Shown here: positions 380 through 36,032 of the stretch, piece after piece
Layout of the letters: the number at the start of each line of letters is the position of its first letter
Position numbering within the stretch: the first letter of the stretch is position 1
From: Candidatus Magasanikiibacteriota bacterium
Lineage (GTDB): Bacteria > Patescibacteriota > Patescibacteriia > Magasanikbacterales > GWA2-37-8
Length of the DNA stretch: 64,000 bases
Direction: 5' to 3'
Assembly (NCBI GenBank): GCA_041666745.1
Contig: JBAYGI010000001.1
Span: forward strand, 6,447-70,446
The notes under the pieces: generated by a model
The model's database searches: none
Seen by the model: the letters and a program-made list of their open reading frames with translations, nothing else
Told to the model about the DNA's origin: nothing
Program-made: the position numbers and the translations under genes

Positions 380-575
380 ATGTTTGATTTAGTTAAATTT
401 TATTTATCACTTTGTATTATGTGCGATTAAAAAATTAATAATAAAGGAGAATTTTGTAGCTATTTCGCCGAATGCGCGGCGGTTATCCAACGTCGTCCCG
501 TAGCAAACCCGCAGGTTTGCGTAGGGGTGATGTTGGATAACCGCTGTTATGCGATGTCCGGAGCGAAGCGACGGA

Positions 576-603
576 TTTCGCATAATGTATCGGCGTATGC
601 GAA
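576..603. other. dif-like 28-bp site (candidate Xer recombination site)
   Basis: TTTCGCATAAT-GTATCG-GCGTATGCGAA has an 8-bp inverted arm TTCGCATA/TATGCGAA around a central spacer. It shares the 12-mer CGCATAATGTAT with E. coli dif (GGTGCGCATAATGTATATTATGTTAAAT). It lies about 0.9 kb from the only tyrosine recombinase in the window. Confidence 0.3.
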
Positions 604-746
604 GTTGCCGATTTTTCTCCTTAATCGTATCAGATATAGAGAAAATCGGCAATTTGGTCGAGCATTTGGCGTCAGCCAAGCGCGAACCACATACGCCGTG
701 TTATGCGTTGTAGCGAAAAGCAACGACTGCCTGCGAAGGCGGCCGT

Positions 747-780
747 TATATTTCTGGTAATTTATTGTTGCGCGCGTGGT
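747..780. repeat. left inverted repeat bracketing the 781-1263 ORF
   Basis: Reverse complement of 747-780 is gaccacgcgcgcaacaataaattaccagaaatat. The partner 1308-1337 is gaccacgcaataataaattaccagaaatat: an 8-mer plus a 19-mer match with a short indel. Confidence 0.7.
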
Positions 781-1263
781 CTATTTTTGTTCTTGTTTAA
801 GAAGTATGTTTGTAACTTGTTCATGCCAGTCTGGCCCCATCACGGCACTTTCCAGCTGTTCCCTTTCTCTGTTTGCCATACTGAAGCTGAACGAAACCGA
901 CTCTACACTCAACATGACATCTAAAGCAGAAAGTTCAGTATTTCCGAATTCACGCAGAACACTGATGCCTTCCTTCTGAACACGTTGATTTAGAGATGCG
1001 ATTGCGTCTACTCCCCAGTCTGATTTTATGGCATCAGGCCATGTAGCGATTTTTTCTCGATTTTTTGGTTGATTAAATCCTGCTGAAGCCATAATGAGTG
1101 CTTTCTCTAACAGCGGTTTATACTGCCCATTTTTTTCAGCCATGTCAAGCAATTGATCAAGAGTATAGCGAGTGTTTTCTAAAGCTTCATGTCTCTCATT
1201 TTCAGATTTTCTCCTTGCCGTCTCTTCTGGAGAAGGCGGTTGATATCGTGGATAGTCTCCCAT
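781..1263 (-). CDS. hypothetical protein (160 aa) inside an IR-bracketed segment
   Basis: Complete ORF, no recognisable motif. GC is slightly above the genome background. A TATAAAT-like element lies between the ORF start and the right IR on the reverse strand. Confidence 0.5.
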   Translation of the reverse strand: MGDYPRYQPPSPEETARRKSENERHEALENTRYTLDQLLDMAEKNGQYKPLLEKALIMASAGFNQPKNREKIATWPDAIKSDWGVDAIASLNQRVQKEGISVLREFGNTELSALDVMLSVESVSFSFSMANREREQLESAVMGPDWHEQVTNILLKQEQK

Positions 1264-1307
1264 ATTTTTGTTAGTTAAAAATTATTTATAATTATTTTTG
1301 TTACGTC

Positions 1308-1337
1308 GACCACGCAATAATAAATTACCAGAAATAT
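1308..1337. repeat. right inverted repeat bracketing the 781-1263 ORF
   Basis: Partner of 747-780, described there. Confidence 0.7.
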
Positions 1338-1460
1338 CAAAAATTTTCAAGAAATTTTTGGCTTTTCGCTATTACGCATAACTACTGATAAACCAACCTG
1401 TTGTTTTTTTGGCTAAAAAATGATAAAATAATTTGGTAAATTTTAATTCATAAAGGGGGT

Positions 1461-2303
1461 ATGAACCAAAATATTTATTTTCCAAGTCAGGATCCGATTT
1501 TGAAATTAAGGCAAGAAATGAAATTGCGGAATTTTAGCCAAAAAACAGTAAAAAGTTACATCTATTATATCTCTCATTGCCTAAAATGGTCAAGGAAAAG
1601 CCCGCGAGATATTAACACGGCGGATATTCGTCAATATTTGGAACATTTGGCGGATACCGGTGTGTCGGCTTCTACATTGAATTCTGCCTATAGCGCTTTG
1701 AAATTCTATTTTGGCGCTATTTTGCATCGTAATTTTTTCGTAAATATTCCGCGCGCTAAAAAAGACAAACAATTGCCAACGATTTTGTCAAAAGGTGAAG
1801 TAGTCAAAATGATAGAATTGACGAAAAATATTAAACATAATTGTGTATTGAAATTGCTGTATGGAACTGGGTTGCGAGTGGGTGAATTGGTGCGATTAAA
1901 GATGAAAGAGATAGATTTTGCGCGCGGGCTGATAAATGTTCGTAATGGTAAGGGAGCAAAAGACAGGTGTACGGTTTTGCCAAAAAGTTTGGTGGAAATT
2001 TTGGAAAATCAGGCGAGAATTAAAAAAACTGACGCTTTTTTATTTACCAATGGCCGTGGTGGGCGACTGACCGAGGCGACAATGCAAAAAGTCGTGGCTC
2101 AGGCGGCACAACGGGCGGGGATTAGTAAAAATGTTTCACCGCATACATTGCGCCATAGCTTTGCCACCCATCTACTTGAAAATGGGACGGATATAAGGTA
2201 TATTCAAGAGTTGTTGGGGCATGCGAAGTTGGCGACAACGCAGATTTATACGCATGTGGCCAATAGTAATTTACAGGGGATTAAAAGTCCGTTGGACGTA
2301 TGA
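1461..2303 (+). CDS. xerC: tyrosine site-specific recombinase (XerC/XerD-like integrase)
   Basis: 280 aa. Arg box GLRVGELVRL. Box II HTLRHSFATHLLENGTDIRYIQELLGHAKLATTQIYTHV carries the H-x-x-R ... H ... Y catalytic pattern. An extended -10 TGATAAAAT sits at 1421-1429. The TGA stop overlaps the next gene's ATG (ATGA). Confidence 0.85.
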   Translation: MNQNIYFPSQDPILKLRQEMKLRNFSQKTVKSYIYYISHCLKWSRKSPRDINTADIRQYLEHLADTGVSASTLNSAYSALKFYFGAILHRNFFVNIPRAKKDKQLPTILSKGEVVKMIELTKNIKHNCVLKLLYGTGLRVGELVRLKMKEIDFARGLINVRNGKGAKDRCTVLPKSLVEILENQARIKKTDAFLFTNGRGGRLTEATMQKVVAQAAQRAGISKNVSPHTLRHSFATHLLENGTDIRYIQELLGHAKLATTQIYTHVANSNLQGIKSPLDV

Positions 2304-3619
2304 ATACAAAAATTGCTCAACAATTAAAAAATTTGCCTGATGCGCCTGGGGTGTATCTGTTTTTTAATTCCAAAAAGGAGCTGATATATGTCGGCAAGGC
2401 GTCGTCTTTGAAAAACCGCGTGAGAGGATATTTTAAGGAGCTGGATTCCCGCCTGCGCGGGAATGACAAGAGTGGATTGTCACGTCCGATAGAGGAAATG
2501 ATTCACGAAGTGATGAACTTCAAAACGGAAGAAACCGATTCGGCTTTGGAGGCGGCGATTTTGGAAGGGAAGTATATTAAGGAAAATAGGCCGAAATATA
2601 ATATTGATTGGCGGGATGATAAGAGTTGGAATTATATTGTTATTACAAAGGATAAGTTTCCACGAGTTTTGACTATTCGTCAACATGAGTTAAAAAATGG
2701 AGGAGGGATTCCTCCGCTCGCTACGCTCGGTCGGAATGACAAACGACTTCGCGGGAATGACAAATATAAGTATGTGTTTGGGCCGTATCCGGGGTTGAAC
2801 ACCAAAGAAGCCTTGCGTTTATTGCGTAAAATTTTTCTTTTTTCTACTTGTGAACCAAATGCCAAGCGTCCGTGTTTTTCTTATCAGATCGGTCAATGTT
2901 TGGGAGTGTGTACGGGAGAAATTTCACCCAAAGATTATTCGGCAAAAGTAATTCGACCACTTTGTTTATTTTTGGGTGGAAAGAAAAAAATATTAATGAA
3001 GAAAACAGAAAAAGAAATGAACATGGCCGCTAAATTGGAAAATTTTGAAGAGGCGAGCAGATTGAGAAACCAACTTCGTCATTTGCAAAAAATTCAAGAC
3101 GTGGCTTTATTGAATGATAGTTTTTTGAGAGATATTACGAAAAGGAATTCCTTGGCCGGTCGGAATGACATGAGGATCGAGGGTTATGATATCTCCAATC
3201 TAGGTAGTAGCAATAAAGTGGGTAGTATGGTAGTATTTGATGAGGTTGGGCCGGTAAAAAATCAATATCGTAAATTCAAAATCAAGACAGTGGTGGGGCA
3301 GAGTGATGTGGATTGTTTGGCGGAAGTGTTGGAGCGTCGGATAAAACATGCCGAATGGATATTGCCAAATATTTTTTTAATTGACGGTGGTTTGCCTCAA
3401 GTAAATAAAACTAAATCGGTTTTGCGAAGGGCTGGGATAAATACACCGATAGTCGGCATTGCCAAAGGGGCAAAGCGTAAACGCAATGATTTTTTTGTAG
3501 TAACTGAATCTTTGGAGATAAAAAACTGGATAAAAGAAAATAAAGAGCTGTTGATCAGAGTCCGCGACGAAGCGCATCGATTTGCTATCAAGTTTAATCG
3601 AGTACAGAGAAAAATATGA
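2300..3619 (+). CDS. uvrC: excinuclease ABC subunit C-like (UvrC lacking the C-terminal HhH2 domain)
   Basis: GIY-YIG N-terminus (GVYLFFNSKKELIYVGKASSLKNRVRGYF). Cys-rich region CFSYQIGQCLGVCTG. UVR motif EEASRLRNQLRHLQ. RNaseH-like endonuclease domain (RIEGYDISNLG...IAKGAKRKRND...RDEAHRFAI). Ends with TGA. Hosts three in-frame palindromic-repeat insertions. Confidence 0.8.
   Translation: MNTKIAQQLKNLPDAPGVYLFFNSKKELIYVGKASSLKNRVRGYFKELDSRLRGNDKSGLSRPIEEMIHEVMNFKTEETDSALEAAILEGKYIKENRPKYNIDWRDDKSWNYIVITKDKFPRVLTIRQHELKNGGGIPPLATLGRNDKRLRGNDKYKYVFGPYPGLNTKEALRLLRKIFLFSTCEPNAKRPCFSYQIGQCLGVCTGEISPKDYSAKVIRPLCLFLGGKKKILMKKTEKEMNMAAKLENFEEASRLRNQLRHLQKIQDVALLNDSFLRDITKRNSLAGRNDMRIEGYDISNLGSSNKVGSMVVFDEVGPVKNQYRKFKIKTVVGQSDVDCLAEVLERRIKHAEWILPNIFLIDGGLPQVNKTKSVLRRAGINTPIVGIAKGAKRKRNDFFVVTESLEIKNWIKENKELLIRVRDEAHRFAIKFNRVQRKI
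2443..2469. repeat. TGTCATTCC/GGAATC palindromic element, in-frame in uvrC
   Basis: ggattcccgcctgcgcgggaatgacaa encodes DSRLRGNDK. Confidence 0.7.
2705..2763. repeat. palindromic element, 1.5 tandem copies, in-frame in uvrC
   Basis: gggattcctccgctcgctacgctcggtcggaatgaca followed by cgacttcgcgggaatgacaa encodes GIPPLATLGRNDKRLRGNDK. Its reverse complement closely matches the intergenic copy at 7445-7505. Confidence 0.7.
3144..3170. repeat. palindromic element, in-frame in uvrC
   Basis: ggaattccttggccggtcggaatgaca encodes LAGRNDM. Confidence 0.6.
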
Positions 3620-34730: not shown

Positions 34731-34814
34731 CACATCTTTACAGCATCTACATACAGGTATAGTATAATTTCTAGGCTTGTTTTGCCGTCTCTAAGGACGG
34801 AAAAGAGAGGGATC

Positions 34815-36032
34815 ATGCGAATTGAGCGACCTATCCGACCAAATTGGCCGGAGCGCAAATGGCCGCGTGTGGCCTTTATTGCACACGCGCTTTTGGACGG
34901 GTATCGCTCAACCGACTTGATCAGTCGACGGTTGGACGAACTCGGGCAAAAGTGGCCCCAGGATGGCGAGGATCCCGGGTTTATCAACTGGTTCTCCTTT
35001 CCTGTCACTCCGGTGGATGGTCAGGGACAGTCGGTGTGGGTTGATTTCTATATCATCCCGGTTCTGGCTGGACAATTTCTGGCTGCCTGCAAGAGCGGGC
35101 AGGCATACGACTGGGCGGAAGCTGTCGCACTCGCCGCGATCGCTGAAGCCAAGGCCGACGGTGTTCACATTACCGTTGGTTGGGGTGCGTTGACGAAAGT
35201 CGCGACTACTCACGGCGCTCGTTTTTTGGAGCGTAATGCGTGGGTGAAGTCCGACGATATGGTTTCGACTACCCATGGTGATGCCGGCACGGCCGCCTTG
35301 GTTCTCGAGACTATCCGTCGAGCTGGTTTCAAGCGAGGTTTTCGCGTTGCGGTGATTGGTGCCAACGGCGCCATCGGTGACGCGATTTCACGTTTGCTTC
35401 CTTCGCTTTCTCCTGAGAGCATCTTGCTCGTGGGGAAGGGCGGAGAGGTGAATGCCTCCCGCTTGAACGAATTGCGCGCGCGGGTGTTTGGTGGTGGTGA
35501 TCGAGTCGCCATTCACCAAGACAAATCGAGCGCGTGTCATGATCACCGGAGCGATTTGGTGATCATCGCGACTACCGGTATGGATATCGCTCCGAGCGAA
35601 ATCCCGTTGGGCGCACTCGTGCTCGACATGACAACTCCGTCTGCGTGCCACGCCAATAGCGAATGGCAGAATAACCGGTTGGTTCTAGCTTCCGGGTGTG
35701 GTCGGTTCGCCGATCGTGCCGTGAAGGAATCTTTCGGTCAATTCGGCGGCGAGTTGCTCGCGGACGTTGGAGCTGGCGGTCACCATGTGTTGTGGGGGTG
35801 CGCCGGCGAGACCATTACGCGAGCGGTCGCTGAATGGCACGGACACGTGGCTGGCACCAATATCCCTCTCGGGGATATCCAGTGGTGCGACAGTCATTTT
35901 CCGGAGCTGGGTTTCGCCCCCCAGTTGCCAGTCTCATTCGGGAGGAGTCTCGACTGGTCGGACGTGCACGCTTTCGTCGAGCGTTCACAAAAAAGAATTT
36001 CGGTGCAGGCGTCGCAACACCTTCACCAGTAA
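34815..36032 (+). CDS. high-GC Rossmann-fold NAD(P)-binding oxidoreductase-like protein (foreign composition)
   Basis: GC is far above the flanks. VAVIGANGAIGDAISRLL is a GxGxxG-type dinucleotide-binding motif. A TATAAT-like element is at about 34768 and a GAGAGGG RBS precedes ATG 34815; the ORF-track start at 34782 is also possible. Family is unassigned. Confidence 0.6.
   Translation: MRIERPIRPNWPERKWPRVAFIAHALLDGYRSTDLISRRLDELGQKWPQDGEDPGFINWFSFPVTPVDGQGQSVWVDFYIIPVLAGQFLAACKSGQAYDWAEAVALAAIAEAKADGVHITVGWGALTKVATTHGARFLERNAWVKSDDMVSTTHGDAGTAALVLETIRRAGFKRGFRVAVIGANGAIGDAISRLLPSLSPESILLVGKGGEVNASRLNELRARVFGGGDRVAIHQDKSSACHDHRSDLVIIATTGMDIAPSEIPLGALVLDMTTPSACHANSEWQNNRLVLASGCGRFADRAVKESFGQFGGELLADVGAGGHHVLWGCAGETITRAVAEWHGHVAGTNIPLGDIQWCDSHFPELGFAPQLPVSFGRSLDWSDVHAFVERSQKRISVQASQHLHQ

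Follow-up and report, generated by a model that had tools for sequence, protein, structure and literature searches.

The locus examined here raised the question of why a GC-rich, heavily hairpinned noncoding block (positions 466-780) lies close to a Xer-like recombinase gene, and whether this block is a chromosomal dif site, a structured RNA or something else. The window, namely the whole stretch of DNA that was analysed, is 64,000 nucleotides of a 222-kb contig from Candidatus Magasanikbacteria (CPR) (GCA_041666745.1, JBAYGI010000001.1). The same DNA, extended to the left, was also treated as locus L003, whose coordinates are those of the window plus 6464. As described below, the block is not a known RNA and is not supported as the chromosomal dif site, and the findings suggest that it contains two attC-like hairpins that belong to an array of small gene cassettes inserted into a dif-like core site.

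First, the composition and folding of the block were examined. The GC content was 0.47-0.54 across positions 451-750, whereas it was 0.25-0.33 in the flanking intergenic DNA and about 0.38 in the window. When positions 440-790 were folded as RNA, energies of -158.1 kcal/mol on the + strand (z = -8.4) and -136.9 on the - strand (z = -9.9) were obtained, and 0 of 100 dinucleotide shuffles did as well. With DNA parameters, positions 575-711 gave -36.3 (+) and -34.1 (-), and positions 462-557 gave -30.6 (+) and -26.1 (-), with z from -5.4 to -7.9. The hairpin whose ends read ATCCAAC...GTTGGAT was found at 479-544, with 31-nt arms that are 81% complementary. Hence, the observation on which the original prediction was based, a GC-rich block made of hairpins, was confirmed, with two corrections. 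The stem at 605-651 described as a perfect 14-bp stem consists of 11 perfect pairs (605-615 with 642-652), a one-base bulge and 3 more pairs. The 28-mer at 576-603, which had been proposed as a dif-like site, does contain the 12-mer CGCATAATGTAT found in E. coli dif, GGTGCGCATAATGTATATTATGTTAAAT, but its 8-nt inverted arms (577-584 and 596-603) are 11 nt apart, so that it does not have the 11-6-11 geometry of a dif core. The block abuts the left arm of the inverted repeat that flanks the open reading frame at 781-1263, as had been stated. A short-word BLAST search showed that the block is unique within the window.

Subsequently, the arrangement of the repeated elements was examined. The exact 11-mer ATTTCGCATAA occurs three times within 1.2 kb of L003, always on the + strand, and no other exact copy was found in 70 kb. 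A copy with one mismatch lies at 1371 and one with two mismatches at 462, so that at least five junctions within 2 kb share this arm, all on the + strand. With 2 mismatches allowed, the 11-mer is not enriched across the window; only the exact and 1-mismatch copies cluster. Each interval from CGCATAA to the next TTATGCG is a hairpin, and four such hairpins were found, two in the window and two to the left of it. On the + strand, which is complementary to the cassette ORFs, they share a layout comprising the 11-nt left arm, which is also the left arm of the dif-like core; about 10 nt where the core has 7, including a 3-nt bulge; a stem that carries a box TATsCGAAG resembling the right arm of the core; a variable tip; the complementary stem; YG; and TTATGCG(A/T)TGT. 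The coordinates of the features are collected in Table 1.

Table 1 Features of the cassette array and the adjacent recombinase gene. Positions are those of the window unless L003 is indicated.
Feature	Position	Strand	Description
Hairpin left of the window	L003 5848-5918	+	Interval from CGCATAA to the next TTATGCG
Cassette 4	L003 5860-6256		Carries ORF97 (97 aa, - strand)
Hairpin of cassette 3	L003 6246-6345	+	Model R1 hit at L003 6246-6342, 74.6 bits
Cassette 3	L003 6257-6936 (window -207 to 472; in-window part 1-472)	-	Carries ORF150 (150 aa), start codon at window 379
Half-sites CGCATAA and TTATGCG, alternating	467-473 (CGCCGAA variant), 547-553, 578-584, 701-707, 1375-1381	+	Read on the + strand
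attC-like hairpin of cassette 2	462-557	+	Left arm ATTTCGCCGAA, spacer, long stem GCGGTTATCCAACG...CGTTGGATAACCGC, then TG and TTATGCGATGT; R1 hit, 42.7 bits, E 2e-7
Cassette 2	473-585	-	113 nt without an ORF, a hairpin plus about 25 nt
attC-like three-way-junction hairpin of cassette 1	575-711	+	R box CGCATAA/TTATGCG; 3-nt bulge; L stem CGGCGTATG/CATACGCCG; inner hairpins 602-655 and 656-688; R1 hit, 86.2 bits, E 5e-19
28-mer proposed as dif-like	576-603	+	5' arm of the preceding hairpin; spans the cassette 1/cassette 2 junction at 585/586
Cassette 1	586-1381	-	Promoter-proximal arm, ORF160, terminator-like hairpin and hairpin site
Distal arm of the long inverted repeat of cassette 1	700-781	+	Extends the R'' box; GC-rich terminator-like hairpin at 722-747
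ORF160	781-1263	-	160 aa, gene of cassette 1, no known family
Proximal arm of the long inverted repeat of cassette 1	1306-1382	+	Extends the R' box; contains TGGTAATTT, which may be the promoter of the cassette (inferred)
attI/dif-like core site	1371-1400	+	ATTACGCATAA, CTACTGA, TAAACCAACC; predicted crossover at 1381/1382
Promoter-like element of the recombinase gene	1401-1429	+	GGCTAAAAAATGATAAAAT, an extended -10; function inferred
Tyrosine recombinase	1461-2303	+	280 aa, XerA/IntI-like, without the IntI-specific extra domain

To examine whether this arrangement occurs elsewhere, we searched for relatives of the recombinase, and 80 loci were returned. The identity was 52-62% in Magasanikbacteria-type MAGs and 41-49% in the other CPR MAGs (Roizmanbacteria, Woesebacteria), DPANN archaea and one Gemmatimonadetes MAG; all the loci are metagenome assemblies and some carry doubtful taxonomic labels. 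Every relative with upstream sequence has a conserved core of the form (A)TTTCryATAA-CTACCTT-TATnCnAACTT, which lies 20-40 nt before a conserved promoter-like element, and the core of the window was conserved in position and sequence in 14 relatives. When the 1,986-nt array was removed from L003, the two flanks aligned colinearly with the uninterrupted site of the relative L012, and the relative L006 showed the same uninterrupted arrangement. In another relative, L007, a 190-nt hairpin unit lies exactly at the ...ATAA| position, where the relative L004 has none. The relative L013 has six model-positive hairpins alternating with four - strand ORFs, and L007, L011, L016, L020 and the archaeal L037 show the same pattern. 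The orientation of the ORFs in the intervals is not uniform, with 42 on the - strand and 16 on the + strand.

The structure of the hairpins was then tested. Eight hairpins from four genomes, one of them archaeal, gave a consensus three-way junction in which 93.2% of cells pair, against 71.4 ± 2.1 in shuffles (0 of 500) and 34-45% when the partners were slid. Compensatory changes were observed in 20 of 30 pairs, including 10 of the 11 pairs of the L stem, and the 3-nt bulge (TWT) was conserved on the 5' arm only. A covariance model, R1, built from this alignment found 53 matches in 574 kb searched on both strands. Of these, 52 are on the recombinase strand and all 52 are upstream of the gene, in CPR bacteria and DPANN archaea; the exception is a weak hit in a GC-rich Gemmatimonadetes contig. 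The binomial P was about 5e-39 for the 80 relative loci, six of the hits there being seeds. Within the window, the only two matches are those in the block. Across the 51 distinct matches, 91.3% of cells pair, against 68.7%, although this alignment is fitted to the model and leans towards the structure. By computation only, all 11 hairpins that were folded on both strands were more stable on the + strand, and one G·U pair, which marks the + strand as the predicted folding strand, was kept in 45 of 51 sequences. In the hairpin at 462-557, the RNA folding energy was -56.7 on the + strand and -45.5 on the - strand, and three G·U pairs form on the + strand only.

Next, we asked whether the units between the hairpins behave as discrete cassettes. 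ORF160 has five homologues at 59-96% identity, all of which lie in other arrays of small co-oriented ORFs. R1 found 86 hits in those 54 kb, all on the strand opposite the ORFs, and several of the contigs end inside a hairpin. BLASTN of the array against the homologous loci L084/L085 gave 801 nt at 95% identity spanning exactly window 1382 to 582, and against the homologous loci L092/L095 a match of 77% that again starts at 1382. At the proximal junction, all three sequences share GTTAT(G/A)CGTAATAGCG, preceded by unrelated sequence, whereas at the distal junction the homology ends after (A/G)TTAT and different cassettes follow. Cassette 3 is bounded at 473/472 by the junction A|TTCGGCGAAAT, read in cassette-sense orientation. 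Cassette 2 is bounded by A|TTCGGCG at 473/472 and A|TTATGCG at 586/585, and it is absent from the L084 array, where a different cassette follows the ORF160 cassette. Accordingly, the block covers the last 7 nt of cassette 3, all of cassette 2, and the hairpin site plus the distal arm of cassette 1. The cassette genes are unrelated small accessory ORFs, and no match of ORF160 or ORF150 was found in Pfam, NCBIfam or PADLOC.

The long inverted repeat around ORF160, which includes repeats of 25 nt (96%) and 22 nt (91%), is the extended pairing of the R' and R'' ends of cassette 1. Both arms change together in the diverged L092 copy, and the terminator-like hairpin of the distal arm also covaries. 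Promoter and terminator scans gave nothing above shuffles; hence the promoter roles of TGGTAATTT and of the element upstream of the recombinase gene are inferences. An invertase acting on the flanking repeats was first considered, but it was dropped as the main reading because the repeats proved to be the extended arms of a cassette that recurs intact elsewhere. Inversion of ORF160 is not excluded.

The recombinase was compared with known families. It passed the NCBIfam XerA model (NF040815, XerA_Arch; 249.6 bits against a cutoff of 220), whereas it scored 250.6 on the integron-integrase model (TIGR02249), below the cutoff of 265 and in two stretches. The best solved-structure match was the Vibrio integron integrase VchIntIA (2a3v, E = 1.7e-50), and the alignment splits in two, with residues 13-190 matching 6-186 and residues 202-278 matching 241-317. 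Therefore, about 54 IntI4 residues, corresponding to the IntI-specific region around patch III, are replaced by 11, and the enzyme lacks this domain. The XerA structures 5hxy and 4a8e each align in one stretch, at residues 24-272 and 12-272, respectively. The identity to IntI1 is 32.7%.

Taken together, these findings suggest that the block is the noncoding part of a cassette array beside a Xer-type tyrosine recombinase gene, and that it holds two folded-DNA recombination sites analogous to integron attC sites. We regard this reading as likely. The architecture of the sites, the covariation of the stems, the strand bias of computed folding, the location of the hairpins upstream of this recombinase family and the exact cassette boundaries were shown by the analysis, whereas catalysis, the use of a single-stranded substrate and replicative resolution are inferred, and everything here is computational. 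In the proposed mechanism, the folded + strand would mimic the double-stranded core site, presenting an R box (the left arm paired with its complement) and an L box (the right-arm-like sequence), with a spacing equal to that of the duplex core on the 3' arm and three extra bulged bases on the 5' arm. The recombinase would bind these boxes and exchange one strand at (G/A)|TTAT with the core next to its own promoter, and replication would then resolve the junction, as happens for integron attC sites and for CTX-phi attP(+). The result would be insertion, excision and shuffling of units of one ORF plus one hairpin, and also of ORF-less hairpin units such as cassette 2. GC skew suggests that the + strand is the lagging-strand template here, which would favour folding, although this is weak evidence. 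There is no experimental or read-level evidence of recombination, and because the enzyme lacks the extra domain that integron integrases use to read the extrahelical bases of attC, single-stranded recombination cannot be assumed by homology. The model was trained on four genomes only, and 16 of 58 array ORFs point the other way.

The interpretation in the original prediction was partly supported. On the computational evidence, the block is made of sites for the neighbouring Xer-like recombinase, the flagged 28-mer spans a predicted recombination junction, and an att-like site, which had been offered as an alternative, was the closest of the options. On the other hand, the proposals that the 28-mer is dif and that the block is a structured RNA, in the 3' region of the gene at 781-1263 or as a leader of the gene at 1-379, were not supported.

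Among the rival explanations, the one that survives best is double-stranded Xer recombination, as in Acinetobacter pdif modules or IMEX elements, although we consider it unlikely. In this view, the arms would be ordinary duplex core sites in alternating orientation, the hairpins would be a by-product of two inverted cores lying close together, and the cassettes would move, or ORF160 would invert, by conventional two-strand exchange. Indeed, the 3' arm of each hairpin reads as a canonical core with a 6-7-nt spacer, GGATAA-CCGCTG-TTATGCG at 536-553 and CACATAC-GCCGTG-TTATGCG at 689-707; ORF160 is flanked by inverted arms of about 80 nt; and the recombinase has plain Xer architecture. Hence ordinary double-stranded recombination is not excluded. 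However, the covariation extends through stems and inner hairpins well beyond any protein-binding arm, and duplex sites would select neither for the strand-asymmetric folding of 11 of 11 hairpins nor for the conserved G·U pair. Furthermore, the conserved bulge sits on one arm only, and the intervals that fold are always short and never hold an ORF.

A structured noncoding RNA transcribed from the + strand, or a 3'-UTR or terminator structure of the cassette mRNAs, is very unlikely. The low folding energies, the G·U pairs on the + strand, the covariation and the hairpin at 722-747, which looks like the terminator of ORF160, would fit this reading. However, Rfam searches of the window, at gathering score and at E values up to 10, and of six relatives gave only tRNA, the L10 leader and chance-level miRNA-like hairpin hits, with no curated family matching the structures in the window or the relatives. 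No convincing promoter was found for a + strand transcript, and the mRNA strand is the one that folds worse. Moreover, the units are repeated, differ in presence or absence between arrays and are bounded by recombinase arms, and an RNA does not explain why the cassette homology breaks exactly at the hairpin bases.

The reading that the 28-mer is the chromosomal dif site, where a single Xer recombinase would resolve chromosome dimers at the terminus, is highly unlikely. The 28-mer lies 0.9 kb from a Xer-like gene, and dif is reported to lie near the recombinase gene in XerS and XerH systems (PMC5357621). Nevertheless, in addition to the spacing of its arms, which is 11 nt rather than the 6-8 bp of a dif site, its left arm occurs at least five times in 2 kb, it spans a junction where homology with another array ends, and it is absent from the relatives, in which the different core at 1371-1400 is conserved. 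GC skew was weakly negative over the 4 kb to the left and positive for 62 kb to the right, a polarity opposite to that of a terminus, but only 70 kb of the 222-kb contig was covered and gene orientation dominates the skew there. The conserved core itself could also serve as the dimer-resolution site. Equally improbable are selfish REP- or MITE-like palindromes unrelated to the recombinase, because, although near-identical noncoding hairpin units are duplicated within arrays (L013, L007), 52 of 53 matches lie upstream of the recombinase gene on one strand, none lies elsewhere in the window, and they share the arm of the conserved core.

We compared the locus with known systems. As in integrons, the recombinase gene is divergent from an array of mostly one-ORF cassettes with heterogeneous genes, an attI-like insertion site lies next to the recombinase promoter with the array on the other side, and each cassette ends in an imperfect palindrome with R''-L''...L'-R' boxes, conserved in structure more than in sequence, and extra unpaired bases on one strand. 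Cassettes are discrete units with a predicted crossover at G|TT, the strand complementary to the ORFs is computed to fold better, and ORF-less cassettes, cassette duplication and shuffling between arrays all occur. In contrast to integrons, the IntI-specific domain, a defining integron feature, is absent, the arms are 11-nt Xer-type rather than 7-nt, the tip is a three-way junction with conserved AAGTT...AATTTGGGTG...AACC, a 3-nt bulge replaces the canonical extrahelical bases, and the hosts are CPR bacteria and DPANN archaea. By eye, R' reads GTTATGC, GTTAGGC or GTTATAT and R'' reads GCATAAC, a partial fit to the attC consensus (RYYYAAC...GTTRRRY). A canonical attC (dfrA17, on the bottom strand) was the best R1 hit within a class 1 integron, but at only 14.6 bits; the architecture is therefore related, but the family is distinct.

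The CTX-phi type IMEX also uses a Xer-family enzyme without the IntI domain, a hairpin whose stem imitates the duplex core with unpaired bases in the central region, and integration of a folded single-stranded attP(+) at a dif-like site (PMC7790495). However, no phage genes are present here, the units are 0.1-1 kb single-ORF or ORF-less cassettes stacked next to the recombinase gene, and there is one recombinase rather than XerC plus XerD. Acinetobacter pdif modules are likewise small accessory-gene modules bounded by Xer-type sites in alternating orientation and found in different combinations, but those are 28-bp duplex XerC/XerD sites on plasmids, without conserved hairpins between modules and without an adjacent dedicated recombinase gene. 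XerS/difSL, XerH/difH and archaeal XerA/dif systems share a single Xer-type recombinase and an 11-6/7-11 core site next to the gene, although Thermococcales dif is not adjacent to xerA (PMC2958812). Here, the core is occupied by a cassette array, its left arm is multiplied, and a terminus location is not supported.

Integron integrases are thought to have gained single-stranded attC recombination by acquiring an extra helix. Escudero et al. state that intermediates are lacking and propose a Xer-like ancestor exploited by single-stranded elements (PMC7790495), and this locus and its relatives look like that arrangement, still in existence, which makes the origin of integrons testable with one small enzyme and defined oligonucleotide substrates. 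Smyshlyaev et al. place recombinases of 'Candidate' phyla in a Xer-related 'Cand' subgroup and give no sites for them (PMC8138268). Ghaly et al. found canonical integrons in Archaea, with only six IntI genes carrying the extra domain and mostly attC clusters without an integrase (PMC9668308). Full-text searches on integrons, attC, Xer and cassettes in CPR, Patescibacteria or DPANN found no description of the present system, although the literature covered was incomplete and a prior description cannot be excluded. Tentatively, the locus may represent a natural recombinase with Xer architecture and no IntI extra domain that runs an integron-like platform, shared by CPR bacteria and DPANN archaea, in which gene cassettes are captured through folded single-stranded hairpin sites at a dif-like core beside its own gene. 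Such a platform would be either the missing intermediate between Xer/dif and integrons or an independent second invention of the integron principle, and part of the attC clusters lacking an integrase in DPANN genomes might belong to it. It would also identify a gene-capture system in CPR and DPANN organisms, whose genomes are tiny and whose means of gene exchange are poorly known.

Integron-finding software that requires the IntI-specific domain would probably miss this system. A homologue on a Clostridium plasmid (L100) is paired with an IS91 transposase and has no convincing hairpin. The arrays also explain a practical problem, namely that assemblies of these organisms break just upstream of the recombinase gene: 37 of the 80 loci end within 700 nt of it.

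We first observed that, among the 80 loci carrying relatives of the recombinase (L004-L083), 37 had the contig end less than 700 nt upstream of the recombinase gene. In one of these relatives, L009, the contig starts 3 nt before the core-site crossover, which lies between TAA and CTACC. Assemblies appear to break systematically at this array. In addition, about 200 nt of conserved GC-rich non-coding sequence was found 5' of a hairpin site in two relatives, L005 and L010. This sequence begins with TATATTTTGGTAAATTT, a motif like those at two positions of the window, and showed no match in Rfam. Both contigs end about 30-45 nt before it.

A conserved flank with a run of C (cgcccccccccctcgcc...caaaaaaacaaa...aattt) precedes the outermost left arm in this genome (L003, the source contig), whereas in two relatives, L012 and L006, it abuts the core site directly. 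This flank may be an accessory part of the insertion site. Furthermore, defence-type genes were found in or beside these arrays in L003 and in L084 and L092, two loci with homologues of the cassette gene ORF160, namely a DUF234 ATPase that matches PADLOC PDC-S27, an MmeI-like restriction-modification gene, and a gene for a GmrSD_N-domain protein.

Coordinates of additional features in the window and in related loci
Feature	Locus	Coordinates
Contig starts	L008; L009	1-20; 1-5
Palindromic inserts inside uvrC	window	2457-2763
uvrC	window	2300-3619
Further positions of the palindromic inserts	window	7887; 10851
GC-rich island	window	34782-36032
Conserved non-coding sequence 5' of a hairpin site	L005; L010	45-250; 45-250
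Similar motifs	window	748-766; 1319-1337
Conserved flank with a run of C	L003	5790-5859 (window -675 to -606)
Same flank, abutting the core site	L012; L006	2625-2700; 1785-1860
Defence-type genes	L003; L084; L092	4232-5653; 250-2640; 1621-2964
Archaeal relative with hairpins and core site (Aenigmatarchaeota)	L037	539-635; 2870-2970; 3853-3890
Recombinase homologue and IS91-family transposase (Clostridium tagluense plasmid)	L100	174-2211

Within the window, in-frame GC-rich palindromic inserts carrying GCGGGAATGACAA occur three times inside uvrC and again elsewhere, with 8 matches observed against 2.0 expected. These inserts look like small repeat elements tolerated inside coding sequence. We also found a 1.25-kb island with a GC content of 0.56-0.60 in a genome of 0.38 GC, which consists of one ORF of 416 aa and may be a recent horizontal acquisition.

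DPANN archaeal relatives carry the same hairpin family and a similar core site (…AACAA-CTAT-TAAACGAAC). These were L037 from Aenigmatarchaeota, and also L020, L035, L036, L039, L046, L048, L050, L058, L066, and L076; accordingly, the system spans both prokaryotic domains in groundwater-type habitats. The closest plasmid homologue of the recombinase (L100, 41.8% identity), found on a plasmid of Clostridium tagluense, is immediately followed by an IS91-family transposase and has no convincing hairpin. The family may have other associations.
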